A stretch of 62,553 nucleotides of DNA, filler included, from Nemertoderma westbladi (taxonomy: Eukaryota > Animalia > Xenacoelomorpha), in NCBI GenBank assembly GCA_032718475.1. It is 4 parts of 4 records of this genome, joined end to end, with 100 filler letters (N's around TTAATTAATTAA, not from the genome) between each part and the next. Parts side by side here need not be neighbours in the genome. Positions count along the whole stretch, not along the records: positions 18,840 to 50,207 come from JAUCBJ010000628.1; 3 more parts are not named here. One strand, given 5' to 3'. The translations under genes and the position numbers were made by a program. Shown here one piece after another: positions 18,840-57,954 of this stretch. How positions within the stretch are numbered: position 1 is the stretch's first letter; each line of letters opens with the position of its first letter. The notes beneath the pieces were generated by a model that did not search any database, was not told where the DNA came from, and saw only the letters and a program-made list of their open reading frames with translations.

Positions 18840-21800
18840 TGTACTGCCTAACTCACCTCCACTATTCTATCCCCAGGGTGCAGTTGGCCTGTATTACTGC
18901 CTAACTCACCTCCACTATTCTATCCCCAGGGTGCAGTTGGCCTGTATTGTACTGCCTAACTCACCTCCACTATTCTATCCCCAGGGTGCAGTTGGCCTGT
19001 ATTGTACTGCCTAACTCACCTCCACTATTCTATCCCCAGGGTGCAGTTGGCCTGTATTGTACTGCCTAACTCACCTCCACTATTCTATCCCCAGGGTGCA
19101 GTTGTGCTGTACTGCCTAACTCACCTCCACTATTCTATCCCCAGGGTGCAGTTGGCCTGTATTGTACTGCCTAACTCACCTCCACTATTCTATCCCCAGG
19201 GTGCAGTTGTGCTGTACTGCCTAACTCACCTCCACTATTCTATCCCCAGGGTGCAGTTGGCCTGTATTGTACTGCCTAACTCACCTCCACTATTCTATCC
19301 CCAGGGTGCAGTTGTGCTGTACTGCCTAACTCACCTCCACTATTCTATCCCCAGGGTGCAGTTGGCCTGTATTGTACTGCCTAACTCACCTCCACTATTC
19401 TATCCCCAGGGTGCAGTTGGCCTGTATGTACTGCCTAACTCACCTCCACTATTCTATCCCCAGGGTGCAGTTGTGCCTGTATTACTGCCTAACTCACCTC
19501 CACTATTCTATCCCCAGGGTGCAGTTGGCCTGTATTGTACTGCCTAACTCACCTCCACTATTCTATCCCCAGGGTGCAGTTGGCCTGTATTGTACTGCCT
19601 AACTCACCTCCACTATTCTATCCCCAGGGTGCAGTTGTGCTGTACTGCCTAACTCACCTCCACTATTCTATCCCCAGGGTGCAGTTGGCCTGTATTGTAC
19701 TGCCTAACTCACCTCCACTATTCTATCCCCAGGGTGCAGTTGTGCTGTACTGCCTAACTCACCTCCACTATTCTATCCCCAGGGTGCAGTTGGCCTGTAT
19801 TACTGCCTAACTCACCTCCACTATTCTATCCCCAGGGTGCAGTTGGCCTGTATTACTGCCTAACTCACCTCCACTATTCTATCCCCAGGGTGCAGTTGGC
19901 CTGTATTACTGCCTAACTCACCTCCACTATTCTATCCCCAGGGTGCAGTTGGCCTGTATGTACTGCCTAACTCACCTCCACTATTCTATCCCCAGGGTGC
20001 AGTTGGCCTGTATTACTGCCTAACTCACCTCCACTATTCTATCCCCAGGGTGCAGTTGGCCTGTATTGTACTGCCTAACTCACCTCCACTATTCTATCCC
20101 CAGGGTGCAGTTGGCCTGTATTGTACTGCCTAACTCACCTCCACTATTCTATCCCCAGGGTGCAGTTGTGTTGTACTGCCTAACTCACCTCCACTATTCT
20201 ATCCCCAGGGTGCAGTTGGCCTGTATGTACTGCCTAACTCACCTCCACTATTCTATCCCCAGGGTGCAGTTGGCCTGTATTGTACTGCCTAACTCACCTC
20301 CACTATTCTATCCCCAGGGTGCAGTTGTGCTGTACTGCCTAACTCACCTCCACTATTCTATCCCCAGGGTGCAGTTGGCCTGTATTGTACTGCCTAACTC
20401 ACCTCCACTATTCTATCCCCATGGTGCAGTTGTGCTGTACTGCCTAACTCACCTCCACTATTCTATCCCCAGGGTGCAGTTGGCCTGTATTGTACTGCCT
20501 AACTCACCTCCACTATTCTATCCCCAGGGTGCAGTTGGCCTGTATTGTACTGCCTAACTCACCTCCACTATTCTATCCCCAGGGTGCAGTTGGCCTGTAT
20601 TACTGCCTAACTCACCTCCACTATTCTATCCCCAGGGTGCAGTTGGCCTGTATTACTGCCTAACTCACCTCCACTATTCTATCCCCAGGGTGCAGTTGGC
20701 CTGTATTGTACTGCCTAACTCACCTCCACTATTCTATCCCCAGGGTGCAGTTGGCCTGTATTGTACTGCCTAACTCACCTCCACTATTCTATCCCCATGG
20801 TGCAGTTGTGCTGTACTGCCTAACTCACCTCCACTATTCTATCCCCAGGGTGCAGTTGGCCTGTATTGTACTGCCTAACTCACCTCCACTATTCTATCCC
20901 CAGGGTGCAGTTGTGCTGTACTGCCTAACTCACCTCCACTATTCTATCCCCAGGGTGCAGTTGGCCTGTATTGTACTGCCTAACTCACCTCCACTCTTCT
21001 ATCCCCATGGTGCAGTTGTGCTGTACTGCCTAACTCACCTCCACTATTCTATCCCCAGGGTGCAGTTGGCCTGTATTTTACTGCCAAACTCACCTCAACT
21101 ATTCTATCCCCAGGGTGCAGTTGGCCTGTATTGTACTGCCTAACTCACCTCCACTATTCTATCCCCAGGGTGCAGTTGACCTGTATTACTGCCTAACTCA
21201 CCTCCACTATTCTATCCCCATGGTGCAGTTGGCCTGTATTACTGCCTAACTCACCTCCACTATTCTATCCCCAGGGTGCAGTTGGCCTGTATTGTACTGC
21301 CTAACTCACCTCCACTATTCTATCCCCAGGGTGCAGTTGGCCTGTATTGTACTGCCTAACTCACCTCCACTATTCTATCCCCATGGTGCAGTTGTGCTGT
21401 ACTGCCTAACTCACCTCCACTATTCTATCCCCAGGGTGCAGTTGGCCTGTATTGTACTGCCTAACTCACCTCCACTATTCTATCCCCAGGGTGCAGTTGT
21501 GCTGTACTGCCTAACTCACCTCCACTATTCTATCCCCAGGGTGCAGTTGGCCTGTATTGTACTGCCTAACTCACCTCCACTATTCTATCCCCAGGGTGCA
21601 GTTGGCCTGTATTGTACTGCCTAACTCACCTCCACTATTCTATCCCCAGGGTGCAGTTGGCCTGTATTTACTGCCTAACTCACCTCCACTATTCTATCCC
21701 CAGGGTGCAGTTGGCCTGTATTGTACTGCCTAACTCACCTCCACTATTCTATCCCCAGGGTGCAGTTGGCCTGTATTACTGCCTAACTCACCTCCACTAT

Positions 21801-23478
21801 TCTATCCCCAGGGTGCAGTTGGCCTGTATTACTGCCTAACTCACCTCCACTATTCTATCCCCAGGGTGCAGTTGGCCTGTATTGTACTGCCTAACTCACC
21901 TCCACTATTCTATCCCCAGGGTGCAGTTGTGCTGTACTGCCTAACTCACCTCCACTATTCTATCCCCAGGGTGTAGTTGGCCTGTATTTTACTGCCAAAC
22001 TCACCTCCACTATTCTATCCCCAGGGTGCAGTTGGCCTGTATTGTACTGCCTAACTCACCTCCACTATTCTATCCCCAGGGTGCAGTTGGCCTGTATTTT
22101 ACTGCCTAACTCACCTCCACTATTCTATCCCCAGGGTGCAGTTGGCCTGTATTGTACTGCCTAACTCACCTCCACTATTCTATCCCCCGGGTGCAGTTGG
22201 CCTGTATTACTGCCTAACTCACCTCCACTATTCTATCCCCAGGGTGCAGTTGGCCTGTCTTGTACTGCCTAACTCACCTCCACTATTCTATCCCCAGGGT
22301 GCAGTTGGCCTGTATTACTGCCTAACTCACCTCCACTATTCTATCCCCAGGGTGCAGTTGGCCTGTATTGTACTGCCTAACTCACCTCCACTATTCTATC
22401 CCCAGGGTGCAGTTGGCCTGTATTGTACTGCCTAACTCACCTCCACTATTCTATCCCCAGGGTGCAGTTGTGCTGTACTACCTAACTCACCTCCACTATT
22501 CTATCCCCAGGGTGCAGTTGGCCTGTATTGTACTGCCTAACTCACCTCCACTATTCTATCCCCAGGGTGCAGTTGTGCTGTACTGCCTAACTCACCTCCA
22601 CTATTCTATCCCCAGGGTGCAGTTGGCCTGTATTTACTGCCTAACTCACCTCCACTATTCTATCCCCAGGGTGCAGTTGGCCTGTATTACTACCTAACTC
22701 ACCTCCACTATTCTATCCCCAGGGTGCAGTTGGCCTGTATTACTGCCTAACTCACCTCCACTATTCTATCCCCAGGGTGCAGTTGGCCTGTATTACTGCC
22801 TAACTCACCTCCACTATTCTATCCCCAGGGTGCAGTTGGCCTGTATTACTGCCTAACTCACCTCCACTATTCTATCCCCAGGGTGCAGTTGTGCTGTACT
22901 GCCTAACTCACCTCCACTATTCTATCCCCAGGGTGCAGTTGTGCTGTACTGCCTAACTCACCTCCACTATTCTATCCCCAGGGTGCAGTTGGCCTGTATT
23001 GTACTGCCTAACTCACCTCCACTATTCTATCCCCAGGGTGCAGTTGGCCTGTATTACTGCCTAACTCACCTCCACTATTCTATCCCCAGGGTGCAGTTGT
23101 GCTGTACTGCCTAACTCACCTCCACTATTCTATCCCCAGGGTGCAGTTGGCCTGTATTACTGCCTAACTCACCTCCACTATTCTATCCCCAGGGTGCAGT
23201 TGTGCTGTACTGCCTAACTCACCTCCACTATTCTATCCCCAGGGTGCAGTTGGCCTGTATTGTACTGCCTAACTCACCTCCACTATTCTATCCCCAGGGT
23301 GCAGTTGGCCTGTATTGTACTGCCTAACTCACCTCCACTATTCTATCCCCAGGGTGCAGTTGTGTTGTACTGCCTAACTCACCTCCACTATTCTATCCAC
23401 AGGGTGCAGTTGGCCTGTATTACTGCCTAACTCACCTCCACTATTCTATCCCCAGGGTGCAGTTGGCCTGTATTGTAC
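18840..23478 (-). repeat. Splice-donor tandem array J (50-55-bp unit, ~87+ copies, runs into the gap)
   Basis: Minus-strand unit = 43 nt of exon end (GTACAATACAGGCCAACTGCACCCTGGGGATAGAATAGTGGAG) + GTGAGTTAGGCA. Confidence 0.97.
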
Positions 23479-23652
23479 GCCGCCCCGCCTTCCATGATGT
23501 CCTTCACGAAGATTCCCGTATCCGTTCCCGCTATGCTGATTCCCAGACTGTTCTTGACGTCACGTGTTACCGGGACAACGCGTACAGGACCCCATTGCGG
23601 TTCCATTGGCGACACTCTGGTCGGATCTGAAGGTCGACTGCGGGGGCGAGGT
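23436..23652 (-). CDS. MPDZ: MPDZ/PATJ-like exon J (N-terminal half of PDZ7)
   Basis: CCCGCAG| acceptor and GAG|GTGAGT donor; encodes PQWGPVRVVPVTRDVKNSLGISIAGTDTGIFVKDIMEGGAAYNTGQLHPGDRIVE; phase 2 to 0. Confidence 0.9.
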
Positions 23653-23901
23653 CTGCGGGTAATAATTAGAGTCTTATTTTACAAAAATAAAGTAACATTA
23701 TTTTGTTCGACTTTCCAATCCGCATTTCCGAGGAATAGTTAAAGGAAATTTATTTTGAGGCCGAGGAAAATATGCTTTTAGTATTTGAGGAAATGGGATT
23801 ATAAAGTCTTTTAAAAAAATGTCTTTCTTTTTGTAAAAGAAGCTGTTTTCCTTTAAATACAAATTGTGAGTGAATATTATATTCCAGAAAGTACAACTAA
23901 T

Positions 23902-25438
23902 GTACGCCCCCTACCATGGATATACGAATAAACTTACTTTGGTGCGGTAGGGGGTCTATCTGTACGGTACGCCCCCTACCATGGACACGAATAAACTTAC
24001 TTTGGTGCGGTAGGGGGTCTATCTGTACGGTACGCCCCCTACCATGGATATACGAATAAACTTACTTTGGTGCGGTAGGGGGTCTATCGGTACAGTACGC
24101 CCCCTACCATGGACACGAATAAACTTACTTTGGTGCGGTAGGGGGTCTATCTGTACGGTACGCCCCCTACCGTGGATATACGAATAAACTTACTTTGGAC
24201 CGGTAGGGGGTCTATCGGTACAGTACGCCCCCTACCATGGATATACGAATAAACTTACTTTGGTGCGGTAGGGGGTCTATCTGTACGGTACGCCCCCTAC
24301 CATGGACACGAATAAACTTACTTTGGTGCGGTAGGGGGTCTATCTGTACGGTACGCCCCCTACCATGGATATACGAATAAACTTACTTTGGTGCGGTAGG
24401 GGGTCTATCGGTACAGTACGCCCCCTACCATGGACACGAATAAACTTACTTTGGTGCGGTAGGGGGTCTATCTGTACGGTACGCCCCCACCGTGGATATA
24501 CGAATAAACTTACTTTGGTGCGGTAGGGGGTCTATCGGTACAGTACGCCCCCTACCATGGATATACGAATAAACTTACATTGGTGCGGTAGGGGGTCTAT
24601 CTGTACGGTACGCCCCCTACCGTGGATATACGAATAAACTTACATGGAGCGGTAGGGGGTCTATCTGTACGGTACGCCCCCTACCACGGATATACGAATA
24701 AACTTACTTTGGTGCGGTAGGGGGTCTATCTGTACGGTACGCCCCCTACCGTGGAAACGAATAAACTTACTTTGGTGCGGTAGGGGGTCTATCTGTACGG
24801 TACGCCCCCTACCGTGGATATACGAATAAACTTACTTTGGTGCGGTAGGGGATCTATCTGTACGGTACGCCCCCTACCGTGGATATACGAATAAACTTAC
24901 TTTGGTGCGGTAGGGGGTCTATCGGTACAGTACGCCCCCTACCATGGATATACGAATAAACTTACATTGGTGCGGTAGGGGGTCTATCTGTACGGTACGC
25001 CCCCTACCGTGGATATACGAATAAACTTACATGGAGCGGTAGGGGGTCTATCTGTACGGTACGCCCCCTACCACGGATATACGAATAAACTTACTTTGGT
25101 GCGGTAGGGGGTCTATCTGTACGGTACGCCCCCTACCGTGGAAACGAATAAACTTACTTTGGTGCGGTAGGGGGTCTATCTGTACGGTACGCCCCCTACC
25201 GTGGATATACGAATAAACTTACTTTGGTGCGGTAGGGGATCTATCTGTACGGTACGCCCCCTACCGTGGATATACGAATAAACTTACTTTGGTGCGGTAG
25301 GGGGTCTATCTGTACGGTACGCCCCCTACCATGGACACGAATAAACTTACTTTGGTGCGGTAGGGGGTCTATCTGTACGGTACGCCCCCTACCATGGATA
25401 TACGAATAAACTTACTTTGGAGCGGTAGGGGGTCTATC
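23902..25438 (-). repeat. Splice-donor tandem array I (63-65-bp unit, ~24 copies)
   Basis: Minus-strand unit = GATAGACCCCCTACCGCACCAAA|GTAAGTTTATTCGTATATCCATGGTAGGGGGCGTACCGTACA. Confidence 0.97.
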
Positions 25439-25517
25439 AGAACGGCCCCTTTCCGGTTCTTTAGATGACTTTTTATCTAAGAAATCTCTGACGACCAGCG
25501 ACGGTATATATCGAATT
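25416..25517 (-). CDS. MPDZ: MPDZ/PATJ-like exon I (end of PDZ6 and linker)
   Basis: TTTTCTAG| acceptor and AAA|GTAAGT donor; IRYIPSLVVRDFLDKKSSKEPERGRSDRPPTAP; phases join exons H and J in frame. Confidence 0.85.
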
Positions 25518-25669
25518 CTAGAAAAATAAATATAATAGAACGATGTTTAACTTAATAAGGAAAAAAATTAAATACTATTAAAAATATTAATTAAAATTAA
25601 ATACTAATACAGAGTTGGTCCCGGGTTGCTAATTATTAGCACGAACAATGATATTGTATGGCCTCAATG

Positions 25670-27890
25670 TATGTCCTCTAAGTATATAAACTCACTATAT
25701 ATCCTCTAAATAAATAAAGTCACTGTATATCCTCTAAGTAAATAAACTCACTGTATATCCTCTAAGTAAATAAACTCACTGTATATCCTCTAAGTAAATA
25801 AACTCACTGTATATCCTCTAAGTAAATAAACTCACTGTATATCCTCTAAGTAAATAAACTCACTGTATATCCTCTAAGTAAATAAACTCACTGTATATCC
25901 TCTAAGTAAATAAACTCACTGTATATCCTCTAAGTAAATAAACTCACTGTATATCCTCTAAGTAAATAAACTCACTGTATATCCTCTAAGTAAATAAACT
26001 CACTGTATATCCTCTAAGTAAATAAACTCACTGTATATCCTCTAAGTAAATAAACTCACTGTATATCCTCTAAGTAAATAAACTCGCTGTATATCCTCTA
26101 AGTAAATAAACTCACTGTATATCCTCTAAGTAAATAAACTCACTGTATATCCTCTAAGTAAATAAACTCACTGTATATCCTCTAAGTAAATAAACTCACT
26201 GTATATCCTCTAAGTAAATAAACTCACTGTATATCCTCTAAGTAAATAAACTCACTGTATATCATCTAAGTAAATAAACTTACTTTATATCCTCTAAGTA
26301 AATAAACTCACTGTATATCCTCTAAGTATATAAACTTACTTTATATCCTCTAAGTAAATAAACTCACTGTATATCCTCTAAGTAAATAAACTCACTGTAT
26401 ATCCTCTAAGTAAATAAACTCACTGTATATCCTCTAAGTAAATAAACTCGCTGTATATCCTCTAAGTAAATAAAGTCACTGTATATCATCTAAGTAAATA
26501 AACTCACTGTATATCCTCTAAGTAAACAAACTCACTTTATATCCTCTAAGTAAATAAACTCACTGTATATCCTCTAAGTAAATAAACTCACTGTATATCC
26601 TCTAAGTAAATAAACTCACTGTATATCCTCTAAGTAAATAAACTCACTGTATATCCTCTAAGTAAATAAACTCACTGTATATCCTCTAAGTAAATAAACT
26701 CACTGTATATCCTCTAAGTAAATAAACTCACTGTATATCCTCTAAGTAAATAAACTCACTGTATATCCTCTAAGTAAATAAACTCACTGTATATCCTCTA
26801 AGTAAATAAACTCACTGTATATCCTCTAAGTAAATAAACTCACTGTATATCCTCTAAGTAAATAAACTCACTGTATATCCTCTAAGTAAATAAACTCACT
26901 GTATATCCTCTAAGTAAATAAACTCACTGTATATCCTCTAAGTAAATAAACTCACTGTATATCCTCTAAGTAAATAAACTCACTGTATATCCTCTAAGTA
27001 AATAAACTCACTGCATATCCTCTAAGTAAATAAACTCGCTGTATATCCTCTAAGTAAATAAACTCACTGTATATCCTCTAAGTAAATAAACTCACTGTAT
27101 ATCCTCTAAGTAAACAAACTCACTTTATATCCTCTAAGTAAATAAACTCACTGTATATCCTCTAAGTAAATAAACTCACTGTATATCCTCTAAGTAAATA
27201 AACTCACTGTATATCCTCTAAGTAAATAAACTCACTGTATATCCTCTAAGTAAATAAACTCACTGTATATCCTCTAAGTAAATAAAGTCACTGTATATCC
27301 TCTAAGTAAATAAACTCACTGTATATCCTCTAAGTAAATAAACTCACTGTATATCCTCTAAGTAAATAAAGTCACTGTATATCCTCTAAGTAAATAAACT
27401 CACTGTATATCCTCTAAGTAAATAAAGTCACTGTATATCCTCTAAGTAAATAAAGTCACTGTATATCCTCTAAGTAAATAAACTCACTGTATATCCTCTA
27501 AGTAAATAAACTCACTGTATATCCTCTAAGTAAATAAAGTCACTGTATATCCTCTAAGTAAATAAAGTCACTGTATATCCTCTAAGTAAATAAACTCACT
27601 GTATATCCTCTAAGTAAATAAACTCACTGTATATCCTCTAAGTAAATAAACTCACTGTATATCCTCTAAGTAAATAAAGTCACTGTATATCCTCTAAGTA
27701 AATAAACTCACTGTATATCCTCTAAGTAAATAAACTCACTGTATATCCTCTAAGTAAATAAACTCACTGTATATCCTCTAAGTAAATAAACTCACTGTAT
27801 ATCCTCTAAGTAAATAAACTCACTGTATATCCTCTAAGTAAATAAAGTCACTGTATATCCTCTAAGTAAATAAACTCACTGTATATCCTC
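25670..27890 (-). repeat. Splice-donor tandem array H (28-bp unit, ~79 copies)
   Basis: Minus-strand unit = GAGGATATACA|GTGAGTTTATTTACTTA. Confidence 0.97.
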
Positions 27891-28078
27891 GTTCTGTAAG
27901 GTTGTTTTCTTCAGGACATTCCGCGCGTCCGTGTTCGACATATTCTTTAGAGACTCCCCATTTATTGCGACAACGTAGTCAGCGACTTGTAGACGTCCGT
28001 CTATGTGGAGCGCGCTGCCCTTCAGTATTGTTCGGACACAGTGACCGTTACCTCGGTCGTCCCGGACTAATGTTAGAC
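27880..28078 (-). CDS. MPDZ: MPDZ/PATJ-like exon H (body of PDZ6)
   Basis: CCCTGCAG| acceptor and ACA|GTGAGT donor; GLTLVRDDRGNGHCVRTILKGSALHIDGRLQVADYVVAINGESLKNMSNTDARNVLKK. Confidence 0.9.
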
Positions 28079-28646
28079 CTGCAGGGAGAGAGTAGGTTTC
28101 GAGTGGATAGGGGGAGAGATGGTCTAGTTTTTAAGTAGTTAATAAATAAAATTGTTAATAAATAATAAAAAGCCCATTTTCAATAAATTTTATACATTTT
28201 AAACAATACATTTTAATATAATGTACTTTAATATTATTTTCATTATTATTATAATTAATTGATAATAAGTTGGCTTCAATACAGGAATTGAGTACCAAAT
28301 TAATAAATTAATAATTTTTAGTTTCATGCAACAGACAAAAAAACAATAAAATAACAAACACCAAACATGCGTCGTTTATTATCCAGAGTTGTTTTCAATA
28401 AATTATGGGCTTATTTCTACTGTAAATGTAAATTAACTGTAAATGTATTTATTGTAAAACTTCAACCAGTCTTTCTACTGAGAATCATTTGGACTTGTTA
28501 AGACTTATCATGAAAATGAGACGTGCATGACTGCAACTATTTTTACATTCGTATCTTAGTAACAGCTTACCGAATAGACACCCTATAAAACGAAAAAATA
28601 GATACCATTTAGTATTTTTCGCTGCTGAATGGAGACATAATGTTAA

Positions 28647-29651
28647 GGGGGGGGTACACCCCCCCTCAGGTCAAAATTTTCGTTTTTTGTTTTTTTATTT
28701 TATCTAGAGTAGAATTTAATGCGGATTTCAAATCTGGAAACGGCTTAGCGAGATCTCTTTTACTTCTTCTGTGTAAAGGCTTATTATAAAATTATGCGGA
28801 AATTTTTATATAATTTTGAATGTTTCTTAAGGTTGTCTCATTATTCCATGACTATTTATTACTAAATGACAAAATAGTATGCGATCAAATTAATACGCCA
28901 AAATGAAATTTGTTCACGTGCTGCGCGAAGTGATTTTTGGCAAGCACTCTAAATTATTTTAACAGGTTGTTAAAAGTGGGTAGGGGTTTTTTTGAACCAA
29001 ATTTCATGAAATCCATTGAAAAATCACAAAATATGGATAGGGGATAAACAATGGGAAAAGAAAAGGAGATACCAGTACTGAAAATAGCGGGAACATTTGA
29101 AATATATTGTTCTTAAACTTTAAATGCGTTTATCTCGGAATTGTATTTTTCACATTCAAAATACTACTACTCAGCCATTTCTTAACCAATTTTCGAAATT
29201 TTTTTTTTGTTTGATTTCTTTTCGGGTTGTGATCAAAAGTTATCGGTTAGAATTTTGAATTGTGCCATATTAATTTCTTGAAATTAGTTAATATCTAATA
29301 AGTAATAATTAATATTAGTTAATAATATTTAAAAAATATTTAAGACCTAAATAAAAAATGTAACCGATAAGTTTTGTGGAGTCGAGGATGCTGATTCAGA
29401 AAAACCAAGTTTCGAAAATTTTCGCCCAAAATTGTGAGACTAGTAGTGTTTTTAGGGAAATTAACAATTTCGCTGGTGGCCGCTAGAGGGCGACGAAAAT
29501 TTGAAAAAATTTTTTTGAACCCAATCTTTGGCCATATGTTAATCCCACGAAAGGTATAAAATATACAAAACTACACACAAGCAGAAATTATAGCCATTTA
29601 CAAAAAAGGTCCATAGGGGGGTGTACCCCCCCCCCCCCCCCCCCCCCCCCC
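28647..29651. mobile_element. Non-autonomous DNA transposon with TTAA TSD (Kolobok-like)
   Basis: TTAA|GGGGGGGGTACACCCCCC ... GGGGGGTGTACCCCCCCC|TTAA terminal inverted repeats; GG terminus fits Kolobok better than piggyBac. Confidence 0.75.
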
Positions 29652-29814
29652 TTAAATTAACCATGAATCACTCCCTCTAATCGCACACGGCCATCATTAA
29701 GGTCATTAAAAACAAACAACACAAAATGACCCGGCTCTGGGACTAAAAACTACGCCTGACTCAACACTAAAACATGGCCCCTTCCACCTGGCGTAAATAT
29801 AACTTGCATTCACA

Positions 29815-30000
29815 TCTCACGGAGGTCGCGCGTTCGATCCCCGCATGGGTCCAGGGGAGTTTACCTATCTGCATTCTTTAAATGGACTATAGACAGGGCG
29901 TATCTCTGCCTTGCACTCTTAAATGGTAGCTAAATGAGTACCGGAGTTTCCTATGGGGAGTATAGTTCTGCGGGGACCGCACTGGAAATAAGTCGTTAGA
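29815..30000 (+). mobile_element. tRNA-derived SINE fragment
   Basis: B-box-like GTTCGATCCC followed by TAAATGAGTACC, a motif typical of the Deu/Nin SINE core. Confidence 0.55.
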
Positions 30001-30271
30001 ATTTGTGCACAATCACTAGCCTAACAGGAGAAGAAACCTTTGCCTCAAACTAACCCGAACTACAACACACCAAAGGGAACTGCACAAATACTATGGCAAT
30101 TATTCTAGGAGAGAGAAAAATACATGAAATACGGATTGAAACAGGAACCTCTGAAAATAACTATTTATTTTACAAAGCAAGTTACATTTTTTTGTCCGAC
30201 TTTATAAGCTTCCGCATTTTCTTCCGAATATTATTCTAATTGTTGATCTGCGTGCCAAATTGATAGATCAA

Positions 30272-31088: not shown

Positions 31089-31166
31089 CTAGAGATTCGT
31101 GGCCTTTCTTTAGAACAATAGTTCTCTCTAAATTCTCCGGTAAACCGCCAGAATCAGGTGGCGAAT
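31089..31166 (-). CDS. MPDZ: MPDZ/PATJ-like exon G (start of PDZ6)
   Basis: TTTTGCAG| acceptor and TAG|GTAAGT donor; SPPDSGGLPENLERTIVLKKGHESLG continues in frame into exon H. Confidence 0.85.
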
Positions 31167-32076: not shown

Positions 32077-32931
32077 ATGGAATTGAAACCCACGTCACTG
32101 AACTACGCAATAGAACAGGTCCTCAGATCGGTGACGTCATCGCATCGCGTCGCTAAGGAGATCTCAGAATCCATGGGAGTAACCCCGGATGACGCCAAGG
32201 CCCTACTAGCCGACCACCCATTGGACAGCCGACTGTGGAAGGGAGAGCAGCCCCCTAGCGGCTACCCAGTACATCCGCTGTATCGGATTCTAGGCATCCG
32301 ATTGGTCCAATGGGCCCTAACTGGCCAATCCCCAGTCGAAACGATGAATAACTTCCATCTATTGGACGAGAAGGGCTACCAGAAAGATAGGCAGAACATG
32401 TTCACCGAGATCAAACCCTTTATAAAGAAGCTGCAATCTGATTGGTTCACCTACGACGAATCAACTCGCTTCAGTTTAATTAAACTGATACTTAAATCGT
32501 TGAAGCGACGAGGGATTCAGGATTTACTAGGAATGCGAAGGACTATCAGCAGTTTGGATGTATTCCCTCCCGCTAGGAGCGACTTACTGGCATCCTTTAC
32601 GGCGGTAAACTCGCCAGACAACCCGCACTCGCGGCTGACAGTGGGGGCCCGCGCGTTATCCAAACATTGCCACCGAGACGTGAGTTCCGCCTGGTGGGGC
32701 GAGTGTTCCGGCGCCGAGGAACGCCGGAACGCGCACGCGTTGGGCGTTGTGGAACGGATTCTGGATGACGCCGCGTGGTTGAACGCCCACGCCATGGTGC
32801 ACGATACCCAGGTGGTGGAGGTGCGGACGGGCGATGGGTACGGGGCGAGGTGGGGCGCGGACGGGAGGGCGTTCAGGGGGTTCCTGGAGCCCCAGATGGA
32901 GGACGGGCACGATGTGGGGTGGAGACACTAG
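32077..32931 (+). CDS. Intronless 284-aa conserved protein nested antisense in an MPDZ intron; resembles the C-terminal domain of plant 'RNA-binding ASCH domain' family proteins
   Basis: Clean ATG-to-TAG ORF; motifs LTVGARALSKH, WWG, WLNAH, EVR..DGYGARW, FRGFLEP.MEDGH..GWRH (family recalled from memory). Confidence 0.8.
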   Translation: MELKPTSLNYAIEQVLRSVTSSHRVAKEISESMGVTPDDAKALLADHPLDSRLWKGEQPPSGYPVHPLYRILGIRLVQWALTGQSPVETMNNFHLLDEKGYQKDRQNMFTEIKPFIKKLQSDWFTYDESTRFSLIKLILKSLKRRGIQDLLGMRRTISSLDVFPPARSDLLASFTAVNSPDNPHSRLTVGARALSKHCHRDVSSAWWGECSGAEERRNAHALGVVERILDDAAWLNAHAMVHDTQVVEVRTGDGYGARWGADGRAFRGFLEPQMEDGHDVGWRH

Positions 32932-33300: not shown

Positions 33301-33337
33301 TAATTAAATTTTGAAAGTTTTAGAATTGTGAAATAGT

Positions 33338-36175: not shown

Positions 36176-36337
36176 ACTTTAACCATGGAAGATAAAACAA
36201 TGCCGTTTTGCGCAACTGAGGACAATTTGCATCTACCAACATCTTTTGGTTCTGATTTCGAATCTATAGAACGTTTTGTTTGTGAAGGAAAAGACAACTG
36301 CAGCCTCCGTTTCTGCATTGAAGATCTTTGTAACTAA
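36176..36337 (+). CDS. Secreted Ly6/uPAR three-finger-like protein, exon 2
   Basis: TTTCATTCAG| acceptor; TLTMEDKTMPFCATEDN...FVCEGKDNCSLRFCIEDLCN*; AATAAA right after the stop; 113 aa and 8 Cys in total. Confidence 0.78.
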   Translation, partial: TLTMEDKTMPFCATEDNLHLPTSFGSDFESIERFVCEGKDNCSLRFCIEDLCN

Positions 36338-36781
36338 ATAAACTTTCCAATAAACTATGTTTGCATCAGTACTACTTGGTGTTGTTAGGTGATGGAAATA
36401 TATTTATAATAAAGTGTATCGTTGGGTTTTGTGTCTTGTGTAACTGTGTAGACATAAGAAAGCTAATCTTATATGTATAATCTGCATTGATAATAAATAA
36501 GCTAAAATTTCATCCGGAGCCGGAGTTCCGGCCGGAGCCGGAGTTCCGGCCGGAGCCGGAGCCGAGGTTTCGTGATTGTTAATTCAAGTGTATTATTATA
36601 GTAGACATAGACAGATATGCGATCATGAAACATGAGGGGGGGGGGGGGGGGGGGGGGGGGATTTGATGCAAATTCTTACTTGGCGACTTAATATTTCGCG
36701 CCTCAATGTTAAATTATCAACTATGGGAAATGAGCAGTTTACAGTCGCATGCTATTCTATTCTAATCAATATACAATAAAC

Positions 36782-36820
36782 TACACCGTGTCCTGGAATA
36801 TAGTGTCGTTATTCAGGTAC

Positions 36821-36855
<35 letters not shown>

Positions 36856-37416
36856 TTTTCTACAAATCTTAATGAGATTGCATGAAATTAGAAACATACA
36901 TAGTTTCACCTCCCGACCACAGACTGGGTGAGCCAGAATATTTATTTTCGCTTTAATTCTTTAGCTACAAGCGTTTGAAAAAAGTGTCTCCTTCGATATT
37001 GCACCAGTTACACCGCAATTATTCTTCAAACATTTAGTGATTTGTTGGTACCAATGGAAAGCTGACCATGCAAGGATTCCAAATATGTAAAAATATTGAA
37101 TTTGGTTGGGAAATAGCTGAGATATGGGCATTCGAATTTTGCATGTATTAGCTTGCGCTGCAGGCCATTTATTCAATTAATAAATACACAATGTTCTAGA
37201 ACATTTTGTTTATCTCATAAGTAGCTTGGCAACAATGCAATGCCTACATGATAATACTAGTATATGGATATTCATACATAATCAAAATGTTCTAGAACAT
37301 TGTGTATTAATTAAATAGAATAAATGGCCTGCAGCGCAAGTAAATACATGGAAAATTCAAATGCCGATAACTCAGCTATTTCCCAATCAAATTCAAATGT
37401 TTTTACATATTTGGAA
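36782..37416. mobile_element. Foldback MITE copy 2
   Basis: Same orientation and sequence as 33338-33870; long imperfect palindrome ~37076-37416. Confidence 0.7.
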
Positions 37417-38342
37417 TAAAGGTACATTATACACAATATATTATGTTGTTTTATTGTTAAATTTCATGATTACTTAACAAGATGTATAATAGATAATATT
37501 GGCCATTTCTTATATTTGTATATGTTGTACACGATTCACAAACATTTTAGCTATACTAAAATTCTAGAACTATGTTCTAGACCTCTTAAAAAGGTTACAG
37601 AAAAAATTCTGAAACATTTTATATAATCCACAAACATGTTCTAGAACACAATGAAAATATAACAAAAACTAGCTAGTGCTAATACTCTGTTATTAACAGT
37701 AACCAAAACAGCGTGAGCTATAAATAAATAGGTGGATTACTTACGGTTCGTCCGTTAAGACGAGCGTTTAAGTAATCCAGAAAATTAACAATAAAATATT
37801 TACATGTTTCGAGAAGAGGTATTAAGAATTACGCCATATAATTCCAATAAAAACCGATATGTTTTATCCCTTATGAACCCCGGGTGTATATAATAAACCT
37901 AGATCGGCGAAATATCGCGTAGGAGCGGGAACAAACCCGATTTCATTTTCATGTAATAATGTGTTATTTTACCCGAGAAAAAAAGAACCGGTGCGGATAG
38001 ACTGGAGAGCAAGTAAGTAGCTCACTAGAGTGTTAAAGTACAGTAATTAATTAACATGCCGGAGACAGTAATATATTGTTAAGCAGTAAGTAATAATTGT
38101 ATAATGTAACTTGTGTATCTAACTACAAACTTTTATATGACGCTAATAAAGTGTTCAACCCACCACGTTCACGTTGTTCAACCTTTGCAGCAACCTTTAC
38201 GGGACTATCATCTAGCGTAATTGCCGCGGTTTGAGGAATATCTATTGAGTAATCGGCAGTTGAATGATGCTGCGAGAACAAGTAAACGGTTTATCTAAAC
38301 TAATAAAACTATATTTATTGATGATGAATTTATATAGTAGAA

Positions 38343-38638
38343 CCCAAATAGCCCCGTCCGCGCCCACCCCACCCCCCAAATAGCCCCGTCCGCGCCCACC
38401 CCACCCCCCAAATAGCCCCGTCCGCGCCCACCCCACTCCCCAAATAGCCCCGTCCGCGCCCACCCCACTCCCCAAATAGCCCCGTCCGCGCCCACCCCAC
38501 CCCCCAAATAGCCCCGTCCGCGCCCACCCCACTCCCCAAATAGCCCCGTCCGCGCCCACCCCACTCCCCAAATAGCCCCGTCCGCGCCCACCCCACCCCC
38601 CAAATAGCCCCGTCCGCGCCCACCCCACTCCCCCAAAT
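38343..38638. repeat. 32-bp GC-rich minisatellite (~9 units), G-rich on the minus strand
   Basis: Unit CAAATAGCCCCGTCCGCGCCCACCCCAC(C/T)CCC. Confidence 0.95.
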
Positions 38639-39180
38639 AATAACAGCACATGATATGGTATACATTTGGTTTTTATATTCGATTTTGTGGACGTAAATTT
38701 TCACATATCGAATTTTTGCGCGAAAAAGTGTAGATTTTGAGCGAAAAAATAGTTTTTGCGAGAAAAAAAATAGTTTTTACAAGCCTAAGGAATTTTTGGG
38801 AGAGGTTAATAGAAATTGTGAACCTACTTGCTGCACTTTTTTTTTATTGTCGACTCTAGTCTGCAAGTCTGTTCAACAGCTATCTCTGTCTTTCTCTACA
38901 GCAGCCCTGCGGGCCTACAGCCAGGTAGTGTAGTGTGCCAGCAATCAGATTATGGAAATGTATGGCGCGCAAAGCGAGCAGAGAATATTGTACACATCGT
39001 CGCTTATGACACATCCAGACATTTAAAATAAATGAAATTCCCTGACTCTTCCAGCTGAGTGGCAACCCTGTAACTAATGAACCACAAATATATTTTCGTT
39101 GATTTGATTTTAAATAATATATTTCGTCTGCAGATGTTATACAATGTAAATATTATAAATGATCACTAAACGATATTTAC

Positions 39181-39258
39181 CCTTTCCTGACGTGGTGGCC
39201 GACTTTCTAATTCAACAGTCCTTAGTTTCTCAGGGGAGGATATGGGGTCATCGTAAGG
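39181..39258 (-). CDS. MPDZ: Probable MPDZ/PATJ-like linker exon F
   Basis: TTTTTTAACAG| acceptor and AGG|GTAAAT donor; open only in phase 0 (PYDDPISSPEKLRTVELESRPPRQER); a phase 0-to-1 exon before exon G was not found. Confidence 0.6.
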
Positions 39259-39913
39259 CTGTTAAAAAAAACAACAATTAATAATAACATAAAGAAAAAG
39301 TGTTAATATTTACTACAATTAATTAACTAACTAACTCGCTATTAAAAGTGCATTGCTTTTTTGTTGAGGAAGAATTTAAAATAAAATAAAAACATGTTAA
39401 TAGATATCAAAATGTTTACAAATTTAAGATATAAAAAATGATAAGTATATAACATATTAATTGATGTTTATACTCGTACGAGTTTCTAAGCATGCAACTA
39501 ATAACTGTAGATATATTATACTCTTTTGTTTCAATATACATGCAAACATGCAACTAATAACTTATATATGTAGATAATTACTTATGTGTGTAGATCCTAC
39601 TATATACATGCAACTAATCACTAATGTGCAGATTCTATATACAATAAATTACAATACATGCAACTAATAACGTTATGTAGGTACAGTAACATCATGCACA
39701 GTCGAGCTGTATGTAGGTGGGTGGATAACAACAGGCTGCTATTCTAGAACGAAATAAATTCCAGCCTTAATCATTCATTCTTAGAAATAAACGGCATTTG
39801 AGAGGACAATGTGGGGTTGTCATAGAAACTATATACTTTAGAACATTTTCGGGAAAGATTTCCAGTTTGATATGAATCAATCAGAACCACCTTGGGGTTG
39901 TTGGGGAACAAAC

Positions 39914-42190
39914 CTCTGTGTAGTAATCGGTGTAGTCCACGGCGGATTGGCGCTGTGGGGCCAAGTTGGAAGGGAGGGAGCCGTTAGCATACGGGCGAGT
40001 ATAACGGAGGCGACCAATGGGAGGGCGGCAGTGGTCTACCGTGGCGGGGCGGTGGGAAGCGAAGGTGTTCGGAGAGTGAACGCGGGGGTTGAGGTTCACT
40101 GCAGAGTGAACGTTGGGGTTGGCGTTCATCTCATAGTGAACGCGGGGTTTGGCATTCATGTCGGGGTGAACGCGGGGGTTGGCGTTCATCTCAGAGTGAA
40201 CGCGGGGGTTGGTGTTCATGTCAGAGTGATCACGGGGGTTGGCGTCCATCTCAGAGTGAACGCGGGGGTTGGAGTTCATCTCAGAGTGAACGCGGGGGTT
40301 GGAGTTCATCTCAGAGTGAACGCGAGGGTTGGCGTTCATCTCAGAGTGAACGCGGGGGTTGGCGTTCATGTCAGTGTGAACGCGGGGATTGGCGTTCACC
40401 GTAGAGTGAACGTTGGGTTTGGCGTTAACCTCAGAGTGAACGCGACTCTCATTATTCGCTGAACAATGAACACGAGTACCAACGACCGCGTTCAGCTCCC
40501 TTCTGGTCTGGAAGCGACTCAGCGGGGTAGAGGTTGAGCCGGTCGTCGGTTCGAAACAAACCGGCGACTCTGACTGACGGACCGGTACTGTGGCCCGTCG
40601 CCATGGGCGACTGTATCCCGACCAATCAGCGTCCACCGACATCACGGACACGTCGTGGCTCGACGATCCGTGATTGGTTGATCCCATAGCGACGTCATCC
40701 GGTAAATCGAAGGATAAATATTTCCGACGCGGCAACGTGTGAGGCCCCCTAGCGGCGCCCGACGACACCGGTGTTGTATCTTCCAGTTGGCGTGGCAACA
40801 CGTTCATCACAAGGTAACTATCGTCTGGCGTGATGTCACCATCCACCACCGGCTTCAGGTACTCCAGTGACTCATCGCAGCGCCATCTACCATCGAACTG
40901 TGGGAACGAGAAATCCGCATGGTAAAGGTTACCTTTATTGGCCGCTAGACGGCCAACCTGCTCGTATACGCCGTCTGGGGTGGGGTAGCCGGGGGTCAGG
41001 GGGGTGGGTTGACGGGGTCGGTCGTACATAGGCTGGTTGTCGTCACACCGCTCCCTTAGTGGTTGACCCCACTCACACTGCTTCCCAGCTGACTCTTGTC
41101 CCCCCTCCCGCCCCCGAGCTCCCTCCAGCTCTCCAAGGGTCGCGTAGATTCCACTCGGGGCTTCCGAAAAACTCCGCGGCGTCGGACAGCGCGGCCGGTA
41201 GCCTTCCGGGACCACTGTACCCATAGCAACCGCATCGACAGAGGTGAAGGAATCGAACTCGAGAACTCGATAGGAAGGATCATCGTCTCGGTTGCTATTG
41301 GATATATCGTTGTCATGGTAACCACCAACTAGTTCTTGATAAACCTCAGGGGAGTGGTCTGAAGTTCGGCGACAGGGAAAACCATCAAAGTTTTCCCTGC
41401 GATTTAACTTTTCGGATGGAAATTCTTTGGTGAATTCTGTGTAATAATCGGCGGTATATTCCTCTAGCCTGGAAGATTTCTTGTTAAATTCATCAAGATA
41501 TTCATCATTATATTCCTTAGGGTGTTTCTCGAGATATTCCTTGGAGTGTTTCTCGAGATAATCCTTAGGATGTTTCTCAATAAATTTCTTAGGGTGTTTC
41601 TCGAGATATTCCTTGTAGTGTTTCTCAAGATATTCCTTGGGGTGTTTCTCAAGATATCCCTTGGGGTCTGCCTCAAGATATTCCTCTTCATATTTCTTAG
41701 GGTGTTTCTCGAGATATTCCTTGGAGTGTTTCTCAAGATATCCCTTGGGGTCTTCCTCAAGATATTCCTCTTTATACTTCTTAGGGTGTTTCTCGAGATA
41801 TTCCTTGGAGTGTATCTCAAGATATCCCTTGGGGTCTTCCTCAAGATATTCCTTAGGAATATTCAGCTTTTTGTGCGGCATAACGGGTCCTCCATGCACC
41901 AAGGGCGTATTCTCCGCTATAGAAAGGAAACTAGGATTATCCTCCGAGGAATGTTCTATAAGGCTCGCCCCACTACTAGCGCCACCTAACGAGTATTCAG
42001 AGCCTTTGGATTCTCTAGAGGAGTTTATTCCCTCGCCGTTAGGTGGCGTTCGGAATATAGCGAAGGAGACACTGAACTTTTCTTGATACTGCGGTTGGAA
42101 TGTTTTATTGCGACCCCTAGTGGTTATTATTGGTATTTCTTTGCAATTTGCTTCTTCGGAATTCTGACGCCGGGTGTGTAACTGGGTAGC
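39914..42190 (-). CDS. Probable giant (2277-nt) low-complexity exon E of the PDZ gene, cassette or alternative terminal (stop at 39881)
   Basis: Lies within the 841-codon ORF; pyrimidine-rich CCCCCACCAG| acceptor in phase with exon D; candidate phase-0 donor GAG|GTTTGT; EYLEKHPK and NANPRVHSEM repeats. Confidence 0.65.
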
Positions 42191-43278
42191 CTGGTGGGGG
42201 TGCAAAGGGTTGGATAACAGAGAACAGGTGGAACATACAGGTATGTAATGAATTTCATAAATATTAAATTGTGGAACAGAAAAGTTTATTTTCGATTTTC
42301 GTTCTTGGGTTACAGAATGACTCATCATTATTTCGAAAGTGATATGTAAAAGGCTGACAGACGTACAGGACAGGTAGACACGGTTAGTATGGGCTGGGTG
42401 CCACAAAATGGGTGTCGTTCAAGCTTTACGAAATTAATAAATAAAAATACACAGTTTGTATTTGAATTTAAAACAAGGCAGCAGATTTAGAACTCTGTTC
42501 AGAATAAAAGGTAAACGGTTTAATTGAATTCCACTTTCATTGTAATTTCTAACTGAAAGATGTCAAAAGTTAAACTTTGGCTCCCAACACGGGAATAAAA
42601 CGACATTCTTTTCTCGAGTCTCTTCAAGTCTTCAACATAATTGCTTATAAAGTGAAACTCTATGTCACATTATTACAGTTTATATCACTTTGTATATAAA
42701 ACTGTTGAGTAAATAAAGTTTCTGTATAGCATAGGGCCTATAATTGTAAAGATTGTTACAACACTGACACGGTGCAAAATATCATGCGATGGTAAATTAC
42801 ATTAAATGTGCAGTGGAGTGCACCAGTACATGTGCACTGCGTGCAGTGCACTAGTACTAGTGCACTGTGCGTTTCCAATGCCTAGAAATTGCATCTGATA
42901 CCATAAATGTAATTGAATTTTATTCGAAATTTCATATTTTTTAGAATTAACGCGTAAATAAATAATAATAATTAGAATAAATAAGAAAAACTTTCTCACC
43001 GAATATCAATAAATTCATTATACAAAATTAAAAAATGAATATATTTAATGCTCTTAATATAAACATTTAAATTACAGACAGAAGTTGTTGAATTTTCCAA
43101 ATTTCTAATAAAATAATAATTAATAAAAAAAAATTAATTTAATTTAAAATTTGAAATTTAATTAATTAAAAAACCTGTAAATGAATATCTGAATGCTATT
43201 AAAATAACAGGGAGTATTGGGGAATATTTAAATAAACTCTGATAAGCAGATAAAAGGATATTTAATATTTTAACGAAC

Positions 43279-43512
43279 CTGTTTATCAGCGGCGGCTGGC
43301 GGTATCGAAGCTTTCTGCACACCAATACGCACCGGGCCTCTAGGGGCGCCCTTCAATGCCTGGACAGCGACATCTAGCGTCGAGTTCTCTAACCGGGTGT
43401 CGTTCACGTAGACCAGTCGGTCGCCGGGCGACAGTCGGCCGTCGCGGTCGGCGACGCCGTCGTTAACAACGTTACGAACCACAGTGACTGTGTGCTGGGG
43501 GTTGGTGGGGTC
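43279..43512 (-). CDS. MPDZ: MPDZ/PATJ-like exon D (PDZ5)
   Basis: DPTNPQHTVTVVRNVVNDGVADRDGRLSPGDRLVYVNDTRLENSTLDVAVQALKGAPRGPVRIGVQK matches MPDZ PDZ5; AG/GT boundaries. Confidence 0.92.
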
Positions 43513-43745
43513 CTAGGGAGTGAGCCAATAGGAACACAGATACAGTATAAAGAGACATACATTCATACACACACACACTTAACCCAAATCACAATAAACG
43601 AGAGTTAATAGCTCATGTAGACATGTTCTTGTTGGTAATCGGTTTTTTTTCTGGAGAATTTTGATTGTGTCAAGAGTACCCGCCACCCGTATTGGTCGGT
43701 TCGAGACTGGTTGAATCATATTCCTGTACACTAATCCGCCCCTAC

Positions 43746-43932
43746 CTGGTAGTCGAGTATAGAGAATCCTAGACCCCTGTCCCCTTTGTCCAACTCTATG
43801 TGTGAGACGCGGTTCTGCCACACTGGTTCACTAGGTGGCGCTATCGATTCACTAGGGGGCGCTGTCGGCTCCAAGGATTGGGAACGGGGGATTACGGGGG
43901 AGGCGTCTGGTTGCTTCTGTTCCGATAGACAC
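43746..43932 (-). CDS. MPDZ: MPDZ/PATJ-like exon C
   Basis: Ends HIELDKGDRGLGFSILDYQ|GTAGGG, the diagnostic GLGFSILDYQD motif of MPDZ/PATJ PDZ5. Confidence 0.92.
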
Positions 43933-44092
43933 CTAAATAAATACAAGAGATATTAAGAGATATTAATATTAATATTATTACTACAATCACAATAATATAT
44001 TATATATTTAAAATATTTTTTGATGACAATTTAGTAACATTTCGATTATTCATAGGTCAAATACAATATAAATAGGTTTTAGTGATACTAAC

Positions 44093-44205
44093 CTATCTCT
44101 CCGCTCGTTAATAGTAAATGGGTCCTCGCTACCATCCACAGAAGTACGCCTCCTTGCGGCAACAACACGAACCTTTTTCGGCAACTCCTTTAATACTTGT
44201 ACAAC
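44093..44205 (-). CDS. MPDZ: MPDZ/PATJ-like exon B (end of PDZ4)
   Basis: CCATCAG|VVQVLKELPKKVRVVAARR...|GTTAGT; phase 0 to 2. Confidence 0.9.
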
Positions 44206-44245
44206 CTGATGGAATTCAGTTTTATTCATATTTAGGGTTTGACAT

Positions 44246-47200
44246 TGTATAAAGATAATACCTGAATGCATATGATGGAGGCCAAACACCTGTTAGCCAT
44301 TGTATAAAACTATTACCTGCATATGGTGGAGGCCATACACCTGTTGGACATTGTATAAAACCATTACCTGCATATTATGATGGAGGCCATACACCTGTTA
44401 GCCATTGTATAAAACTATTACCTGCATATGATGGAGGCCATACACCTGTTAGCCATTGTATAAAACTATTACCTGCATATGATGGAGGCCAAACACCTGT
44501 TGGACATTGTATAAAACCATTACCTGCATATTATGATGGAGGCCATACACCTGTTAGCCATTGTATAAAACTATTACCTGCATATGATGGAGGCCATACA
44601 CCTGTTTGCCATTGTATAAAACTATTACCTGCATATGATGGAGGCCATACACCTGTTGGACTTTGTATAAAACTATTACCTGCATATGATGGAGGCCAAA
44701 CACCTGTTAGCCATTGTATAAAACTATTACCTGCATATGATGGAGGCCAAACACCTGTTAGCCATTGTACAAAACTATTACCTGCATATGATGGAGGCCA
44801 TACACCTGTTAGCCATTGTATAAAACTATTACCTGCATATGATGGAGGCCATACACCTGTTGGACATTGTATAAAACCATTACCTGCATATTATGATGGA
44901 GGCCATACACCTGTTGGACATTGTATAAAACTATTACCTGCATATGATGGAGGCCATACACCTGTTAGCCATTGTATAAAACCATTACCTGCATATGATG
45001 GAGGCCATACACCTGTTAGCCATTGTATAAAACCATTACCTGCATATTATGATGGAGGCCATACACCTGTTGGACATTGTATAAAACCATTACCTGCATA
45101 TTATGATGGAGGCCATACACCTGTTGGACATTGTATAAAACTATTACCTGCATATGATGGAGGCCATACACCTGTTGGACATTGTATAAAACCATTACCT
45201 GCATATTATGATGGAGGCCATACACCTGTTGGACATTGTATAAAACCATTACCTGCATATTATGATGGAGGCCATACACCTGTTGGACATTGTATAAAAC
45301 TATTACCTGCATATGATGGAGGCCATACACCTGTTAGCCATTGTATAAAACCATTACCTGCATATTATGATGGAGGCCATACACCTGTTGGACATTGTAT
45401 AAAACTATTACCTGCATATGATGGAGGCCATACACCTGTTAGCCATTGTATAAAACCATTACCTGCATATTATGATGGAGGCCATACACCTGTTGGACAT
45501 TGTATAAAACTATTACCTGCATATGATGGAGGCCATACACCTGTTAGCCATTGTATAAAACTATTACTTGCATATGATGGAGGCCAAACACCTGTTAGCC
45601 ATTGTACAAAACTATTACCTGCATATGATGGAGGCCATACACCTGTTGGACATTGTATAAAACCATTACCTGCATATTATGATGGAGGCCATACACCTGT
45701 TAGCCATTGTATAAAACTATTACCTGCATATGATGGAGGCCAAACACCTGTTGGACATTGTACTAAACTATTACCTGCATATGATGGAGGCCATACACCT
45801 GTTAGCCATTGTATAAAACCATTACCTGCATATTATGGAGGCCAAACACCTGTTAGCCATTGTATAAAACTATTACCTGCATATGATGGAGGCCAAACAC
45901 CTGTTGGACATTGTATAAAACCATTACCTGCATATTATGATGGAGGCCATACACCTGTTGGACATTGTATAAAACTATTACCTGCATATGATGGAGGCCA
46001 TACACCTGTTAGCCATTGTATAAAACTATTACCTGCATATGATGGAGGCCAAACACCTGTTAGCCATTGTATAAAACTATTACCTGCATATGATGGAGGC
46101 CATACACCTGTTAGCCATTGTACAAAACTATTACCTGCATATGATGGAGGCCATACACCTGTTGCACATTGTATAAAACCATTACCTGCATATTATGATG
46201 GAGGCCAAACACCTGTTAGCCATTGTACAAAACTATTACCTGCATATGATGGAGGCCATACACCTGTTGGACTTTGTATAAAACTATTACCTGCATATGA
46301 TGGAGGCCATATACCTGTTGGACATTGTATAAAACCATTACCTGCATATTATGATGGAGGCCATACACCTGTTAGCCATTGTATAAAACTATTACCTGCA
46401 TATGATGGAGGCCAAACACCCGTTAGCCATTGTACAAAACTATTACCTGCATATGATGGAGGCCATACACCTGTTAGCCATTGTATAAAACTATTACCTG
46501 CATATGATGGAGGCCATACACCTGTTGGACATTGTACTAAACTATTACCTGCATATGGTGGAGGCCATACACCTGTTGGACATTGTATAAAACCATTACC
46601 TGCATATTATGATGGAGGCCATACACCTGTTGGACTTTGTATAAAACTATTACCTGCAATGATGGAGGCCATACACCTGTTGGACATTGTACTAAACTAT
46701 TACCTGCATATGGTGGAGGCCATACACCTGTTGGACATTGTATAAAACCATTACCTGCATATTATGATGGAGGCCATACACCTGTTGGACTTTGTATAAA
46801 ACTATTACCTGCATATGATGGAGGCCATATACCAGTTGGACATTGTATAAAACCATTACCTGCATATTATGATGGAGGCCATACACCTGTTAGCCATTGT
46901 ATAAAACTATTACCTGCATATGATGGAGGCCAAACACCTGTTAGCCATTGTACAAAACTATTACCTGCATATGATGGAGGCCATACACCTGTTAGCCATT
47001 GTATAAAACTATTACCTGCATATGATGGAGGCCAAACACCTGTTAGCCATTGTACAAAACTATTACCTGCATATGATGGAGGCCATACACCTGTTGGACA
47101 TTGTACTAAACTATTACCTGCATATGGTGGAGGCCATACACCTGTTGGACATTGTATAAAACCATTACCTGCATATTATGATGGAGGCCATACACCTGTT

Positions 47201-47258
47201 GGACATTGTATAAAACTATTACCTGCATATGATGGAGGCCATACACCTGTTTGCCATT
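44246..47258 (-). repeat. Splice-donor tandem array A (51/54-bp unit, ~57 copies)
   Basis: Minus-strand unit = 36 nt of exon end (AATGGCTAACAGGTGTATGGCCTCCATCATATGCAG) + GTAATAGTTTTATAC. Confidence 0.97.
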
Positions 47259-47328
47259 AACTTCTAGGAGCTCATCACCCGGTTTCAATCGTCCATCAAC
47301 ACCAACTGGACCTTGATCAATAACACTC
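47223..47328 (-). CDS. MPDZ: MPDZ/PATJ-like exon A (middle of PDZ4)
   Basis: GATTTAG|SVIDQGPVGVDGRLKPGDELLEVNGKQVYGLHHMQ|GTAATA. Confidence 0.9.
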
Positions 47329-57945: not shown

Positions 57946-57954
57946 TGACTTGAC

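Follow-up and report, generated by a model that had tools for sequence, protein, structure and literature searches.

Four introns of a single MPDZ/PATJ-like gene of Nemertoderma westbladi begin with a kilobase-scale tandem array whose repeat unit straddles the 5′ splice site, and at each of the three affected exon ends that could be read in a spliced contig the first of the many donor copies is the one that is joined. The gene lies on the minus strand of contig JAUCBJ010000628.1, which occupies positions 18840-50207 of the 62,553-nucleotide stretch of genomic DNA analysed here (the window); the window consists of four contigs joined by N44-TTAATTAATTAA-N44 linkers, and all positions are counted along it. 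We read the arrays as four unrelated minisatellites of the kind named 'mirages', born by slippage, enlarged by ordinary repeat turnover and tolerated through splicing at the first donor, and we put the probability of this reading at a little over 0.7.

Four donor-spanning arrays in one gene

Arrays were called with Tandem Repeats Finder (TRF) and studied on contig 18840-50207, where tandem arrays occupy 44% of the sequence (36% in the window). The four arrays considered here are designated A, H, I and J after the exons at which they begin (Table 1). Each starts in the final bases of a coding exon and then crosses the GT of the donor, and TRF matches within the four arrays range from 91 to 97%. 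The unit of array A is 51 or 54 nt long (36 nt of exon and 15 nt of intron) and that of array H is 28 nt (11 nt of exon and 17 nt of intron); units measure 63-65 nt in array I and 50-55 nt in array J. The donors contained in the first units, with a slash at the exon end, are CAG/GTAATA (A, exon end 47223), ACA/GTGAGT (H, 27880), AAA/GTAAGT (I, 25416) and GAG/GTGAGT (J, 23436). Since the longest exact match between any two of the four units is only 5-8 nt, we regard the units as unrelated.

Donor copies downstream of the real exon ends total 244 (57 + 78 + 23 + 86), the count for array J being a lower bound because the end of the contig at a linker cuts this array. Introns A, H and I consist of array over 98, 94 and 86% of their length, leaving 61, 145 and 249 nt of unique sequence, respectively, between the array end and the acceptor. 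A 20-nt search for copies of the splice-site context at ten donors and ten acceptors recovered copies for four of the donors and for none of the acceptors. The first-pass annotation of this DNA had described four independent donor-straddling arrays, each with the real exon end as its first unit, about 250 donor copies in the pre-mRNA, three introns made almost entirely of array and acceptors without a counterpart. This description holds throughout, the identity of the exon end with the first unit resting on the spliced contig described below for A, H and I and on homology for J. Each unit of array I also contains an inverted repeat, predicted to fold as a stem with the donor in its loop, and we found no RNA structure that was consistently shared around all four donors.

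Splicing at the first donor

Ten exons of the host gene were modelled on the contig (A, B, C, D, F, F2, G, H, I and J), which together give a stop-free reading of 473 residues. Exons A, D, H and J match the Pfam PDZ domain, exons B, C and I gave no Pfam PDZ match, and the best matches of exon D are MPDZ and Patj proteins. Against eel MPDZ, in a set of 8 proteins, the 473-residue model aligns end to end with 34% identity (E 4e-73). Homologues are in register with the A-B join and with the end of exon J, which was placed by homology at GDRIVE/VD, two homologues carrying VD after GDRIVE. On sequence similarity, the host gene is a member of the MPDZ/PATJ family of animal cell-polarity genes, with a predicted collinear multi-PDZ product.

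To this model we compared four of the six sequencing runs listed (X1 to X4), as assembled contigs, over two short stretches around exons A and I. One 3283-nt contig of run X4 covers both exons. The 995 nt that separate A from I in this contig equal, to the base, the sum of exons B, C, D, F, F2, G and H of the model, and the loose ends of the contig are identical to the starts of B and J and to the unique end of H. The first donor is joined at all three sites read in this contig, which comes from one sample, namely A to B, H to I and I to J. The rule of first-donor selection that the first-pass annotation had considered necessary is thus what the spliced contig displays.

X4 is catalogued as 'DNA?', and none of the six runs is recorded as RNA. 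We infer that X4 is RNA-derived because the contig is spliced, the intron bases adjoining exons A and I are not covered and the share of sequence words from positions 39000-44300 that is found in the run (0.09) equals that expected if exons alone were present (0.093). The uncovered flanking intron bases and the exon-only word share also led us to reject the contig as a retrocopy captured in a DNA run. The stretch around exon A was matched by a single X4 record. No X4 record carries array sequence at A or I, in contigs, which drop rare variants. Exon A of X4 has a synonymous change relative to both the window and X2 at position 47253, in the part that the array copies.

The coding consequences of using a later donor differ among the arrays. 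At H, I and J, any later donor among copies 2-12 would introduce a stop. Splicing from copy 2 or 3 of array A would keep the frame and meet no stop, and decay alone therefore does not explain the use of the first donor at this exon.

Two decisions on the exon model were also taken here. A donor for exon F2 at 38183 is in the wrong phase, and 38164 was adopted instead. A 2277-nt open frame at 42190-39914 was rejected as a constitutive exon, the spacing in the X4 contig being too short to hold it and the word share in X4 being expected to reach 0.52 with it.

Presence of arrays A and I in a second sample

Arrays A and I are present in sample S2 (runs X2 and X3, from a different study) as well as in S1; X1 may be the source of the window. 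In both samples, the A and I units are represented by numerous short contigs of high depth, next to unique contigs of low depth. At array I in X2, depth is 117-331 over the units versus 25 over unique sequence (27 of 54 pieces shown), although contig depth in these runs is not equivalent to copy number, as the contigs were served collapsed and there were no long reads. X1 and X2 share the far end of array I, and both contain the head-to-tail junction of array A. Two of the four linker-joined contigs that make up the window end within an array, and the comparison with the runs drew on contigs only and, beyond arrays A and I, took in little of H and nothing of J, all of which would be in keeping with arrays, or array lengths, that are artefacts of assembly or amplification. 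We nonetheless consider such an artefact extremely improbable, given the recurrence of arrays A and I in the second sample, the shared far end of array I and the structured variants that the array units carry.

Origin of the arrays and their excess at donor sites

In three of the arrays, a short near-repeat pairs the start of the first unit with the far end of the array: nine of ten positions match in A (47258 and 44246), nine of 11 in I and ten of 11 in H, although the near-repeat at H may be just a decayed last copy. In the standard model, minisatellites are born from short direct repeats (PMC2820488). Slippage duplication between short near-repeats flanking the donor is the event that probably started each array, and growth would then have proceeded by ordinary repeat turnover. 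Array A carries both versions of the flank, in 29 and 27 of 56 copies. Across the arrays, inner copies are near-identical and last copies decayed, and the real exon end shows fixed differences from most copies (three in I and at least one in A). This combination of near-identical inner copies with divergent edges is the pattern of homogenisation that spares the edges.

A donor-spanning duplication would leave the coding exon whole, with growth only into the intron. By comparison, the protein would be disrupted by a duplication within an exon, and an acceptor-spanning duplication would place new AGs ahead of the real one, so that selection would keep donor arrays more readily. Once formed, the arrays are likely to have been tolerated as long as splicing takes the first donor. 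Four such arrays in one gene would, on this account, reflect a satellite-rich genome, a survival filter and the choice of window, with possibly a modest seeding bias at exon ends.

Other possible determinants were also considered. Near-repeats resembling the putative seeds occur at four of the six unaffected donors and at three of the ten acceptors, and the presence of a seed is therefore not enough to explain why these four donors were affected. Donor strength as a cause was rejected, as the affected sites match the consensus at 5-7 of nine positions and the other six at 5-8, which is no difference. A spliced-RNA template for the units is excluded, since the units include intron sequence. Intron gain by tandem duplication does not fit the arrangement observed, in which 61-249 nt of unique sequence precede the acceptor and no acceptor context is repeated.

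Several observations weigh against slippage, turnover and tolerance as the full account. The reading of X4 covers the donors of A, H and I, and its contig continues for 90 bases past the modelled end of J. Minor use of later donors is compatible with the contig data, and degradation would remove the stop-bearing products expected at H, I and J. A partial last copy mimics an end near-repeat in any array, which leaves A and I as the arrays with clear evidence for seeds. The copies of array J vary at other positions, yet all 86 keep the full 9-nt donor. Furthermore, the donor arrays are the four largest among the nine arrays of the contig, and survival alone would bring their number up to the intron background and not beyond it. 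When the nine arrays were placed at random, 0.17-0.18 donor matches were expected against the four observed (P of four or more = 1-2e-5), a statistic that is post hoc, the window having been selected for this pattern from a very large scan. As survival cannot exceed the intron background, either the choice of window explains much of the excess or a seeding bias is real.

The excess raises the alternative of a mutational bias in this lineage, by which repeats would arise or lengthen more readily at 5′ splice sites than elsewhere, the arrays themselves being silent. Slippage or the repair of breaks at exon ends covered by an R-loop or by nascent RNA with U1 bound could be the mechanism. The number of affected donors relative to random placement, the absence of copied acceptor contexts, the lack of relationship among the four units and their rank as the largest arrays of the contig all speak for such a process. 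On the other side, the evidence comes from one gene that was picked for the pattern, and the difference between donors and acceptors is slight (Fisher p = 0.043 one-sided, 0.087 two-sided). Three of the seven arrays longer than 1.5 kb in the window have no identified donor. In lancelets, comparable repeats hit both exon borders (PMC3087553), the near-repeats at the array ends offer a plain DNA route, and the intron sequence within the units removes spliced RNA as a template. We therefore judge biased seeding, including the U1 or R-loop route, to be unlikely as compared with slippage followed by turnover and tolerance. Its genome-wide extension, in which the birth or growth of minisatellites would favour 5′ splice sites throughout and a large fraction of donors would be followed by tens of silent copies, we hold to be more doubtful still. 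A genome-wide survey of arrays at donors versus acceptors was not found in the literature searched, which leaves out most subscription journals.

Variation among the donor copies

A further alternative is that the arrays are kept for a job, whether as a U1 decoy or telescripting platform, for stepwise splicing, as a dial of mRNA decay or by adding 18-35 residues to a PDZ domain when copy 2 or 3 of array A is used. In line with this, the GT is intact in 56 of 56 (A), 75 of 78 (H), 21 of 21 (I) and 86 of 86 (J) copies examined. Spacings in array A are 51 or 54 nt, multiples of three, in 55 of 56 cases, the second and third copies are open as described above, and a second CAG/GT is present in every A unit. 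However, high identity among copies is expected from homogenisation, and the donor positions show no more conservation than other positions of the unit: substitution alleles number nine in 36 donor sites versus 42 in 164 other sites (p = 1.0). In array J alone, there are no alleles in nine donor sites versus 13 in 46 others; array H has five alleles at donor sites and carries GC at +2 in three and C at +5 in ten of 77 units. The X4 contig runs unbroken through all three joins and no array-bearing record was found in X4 at A or I; likewise, the work on lancelet repeats and on human F7, in the portions available, reports no aberrant or alternative products (PMC3087553, PMC3902484, PMC1557585). 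The donor copies thus show no sign of function, and we regard a selected role as very improbable. The earlier proposal of a U1 decoy or a dial of nonsense-mediated decay loses its footing here, the donor positions in the copies being as variable as the remaining unit.

Comparison with known border-spanning repeats

The name 'mirages' was given to repeats across the exon-intron borders of lancelet Adh3, whose units are 10-72 bp long (PMC3087553, PMC3902484); the original description is that of Canestro et al. 2002, as given by these two citing papers. Lancelet mirages are also known in the globins BflGb6 and BflGb9, in troponin C and in PGBD5, at both borders and with splicing undisturbed (PMC3087553, PMC3902484), and homogenisation sparing the edges was reported for BflGb6 (PMC3087553). 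The arrays described here resemble these repeats in that the unit spans the border and copies the splice signal, in the overlapping range of unit sizes (28-65 nt here), in the presence of several arrays per gene, as in Adh3 and PGBD5, in normal splicing and in the escape of edge copies from homogenisation. They differ in copy number, since the lancelet globin and PGBD5 cases hold 2-7 copies and ours 24 to over 87, and in location, since lancelet mirages affect both borders whereas the arrays here affect donors only and amount to over 11 kb in one gene. On the three features tested, namely an array of minisatellite size, a border-spanning unit and normal mRNA (at A, H and I), the four arrays belong to the mirage class.

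The closest parallel for the choice of donor is a 37-bp variable number tandem repeat (VNTR) in intron 7 of human F7, which presents five to nine identical donors (Borensztajn et al. 2006, PMC1557585). In a study of 50 constructs only the first donor was used, in keeping with a scanning-type rule (PMC1557585). Both cases have a first unit that straddles the real donor and a series of identical pseudo-donors behind it, and in both the donor used is the one farthest upstream, even where a later donor would bring no stop. F7 concerns one mammalian intron with 5-9 donors, whereas four introns with 23 to over 86 copies are affected here, and the F7 rule was tested by mutation, whereas first-donor use is seen here in an assembled transcript alone. 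De Grassi and Ciccarelli (2009, PMC2812944) found that repeats at exon-intron borders within human duplicated genes can give rise to alternative transcripts or to new introns. The N. westbladi arrays share with these their tandem arrangement at exon-intron borders within a gene, but the introns here separate ordinary MPDZ exons and no unit is present in the spliced contig. The available portion of PMC10078293 holds nothing on donor-spanning arrays, and for the human CBS 31-bp VNTR, which the first-pass annotation had named, our literature search found no paper. The repeat class is thus already known from lancelets and humans, and the present case is notable for density and size.

Features of the gene and of the window

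Coordinates of the arrays and exons are collected in Table 1.

Table 1. Donor-spanning arrays and modelled exons of the MPDZ/PATJ-like gene (window positions)
Feature	Position	Strand	Evidence and remarks
Array A	44267-47258	-	TRF: 51 nt, 57.7 copies; 57 downstream donor copies, last decayed
Array H	25663-27890	-	TRF: 28 nt, 79.6 copies; 78 downstream donor copies
Array I	23902-25445	-	TRF: 65 nt, 24.0 copies; 23 downstream donor copies
Array J	18840-23478	-	TRF: 55 nt, 87.1 copies; at least 86 downstream donor copies
Exon A, part of PDZ domain	47223-47328	-	Pfam PDZ 2.5e-5; covered by X4 contig, which continues into B
Exon B	44093-44205	-	Homology; start read in X4 contig
Exon C, both ends array-free	43746-43932	-	Fits 995-nt spacing in X4 contig
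Exon D, PDZ, both ends array-free	43279-43512	-	Pfam PDZ 2.4e-10; best matches MPDZ/Patj
Exon F (predicted), array-free	39181-39258	-	Fits 995-nt spacing in X4 contig
Exon F2 (predicted, phase 0 to 1), array-free	38164-38269	-	Fits 995-nt spacing in X4 contig
Exon G, donor array-free	31089-31166	-	23-nt array begins about 90 nt into intron
Exon H, PDZ; terminal 11 nt are unit 1 of array H	27880-28078	-	Pfam PDZ 5e-9
Exon I; terminal ~23 nt are unit 1 of array I	25416-25517	-	Exact cover by X4 contig
Exon J, PDZ; terminal 42-43 nt are unit 1 of array J	23436-23652	-	Pfam PDZ 1.3e-9; start joined to I in X4 contig

Two long open frames lie in introns of the gene. The D-F intron holds, on the minus strand at 39881-42418, an 845-codon frame with two in-frame repeats (24 and 30 nt), an in-phase AG at 42190 and a GT at 39914; it is absent from the X4 contig and is possibly a large alternative exon. 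Nested in the F2-G intron on the opposite strand is an intronless frame of 284 residues (32077-32931, +), for which no Pfam match was obtained and whose Atlas look-alikes, at 0.95-0.97, are unnamed eukaryotic clusters.

Elsewhere in the window, a PTBP1-like gene with RRM domains occupies a single unbroken frame of 617 residues (60274-62127, -), and its protein is 44-53% identical to fish, hemichordate, arthropod and other proteins among the 120 matches listed. To our knowledge, the PTBP genes of most animals have many introns, and this copy may represent a retrocopy or intron loss. An unbroken frame of 1019 residues at 50558-53617 (+), nearly intron-free and with Rab-binding and GRIP domains at its end, is one that we take to be GCC2-like. 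Further arrays were also present. At 13429-16467 there is a 47/35-nt array whose initial minus-strand unit places a donor-like site behind 30 open codons; inspection by eye gave no exon evidence and it was not counted as a splice-site array. Unrelated 37-nt arrays extend over 4.3 kb at 6496-10826 and over more than 1.6 kb at 54451-56110, the second, downstream of the GRIP gene, beginning 5 nt past an acceptor-like AG and reaching the contig end; both were likewise set aside, no supported exon being seen by eye. Broken pieces of reverse transcriptase resembling that of long interspersed nuclear elements were recognised by eye, from translations, at 355-4350, 49440-50050 and 56600-58280.

Significance

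Such arrays call for caution in annotation, as they mimic alternative exon ends and break assemblies. The finding would gain in importance if the donor excess held genome-wide: a true bias would mean that repeat mutation is linked with transcription or U1 binding, and thousands of natural tests of the choice among identical donors would become available. The gene described here carries first-donor selection into an invertebrate-like lineage and to arrays with 23-78 copies, and in array A the second and third donors are in frame, which makes it a clean test case.

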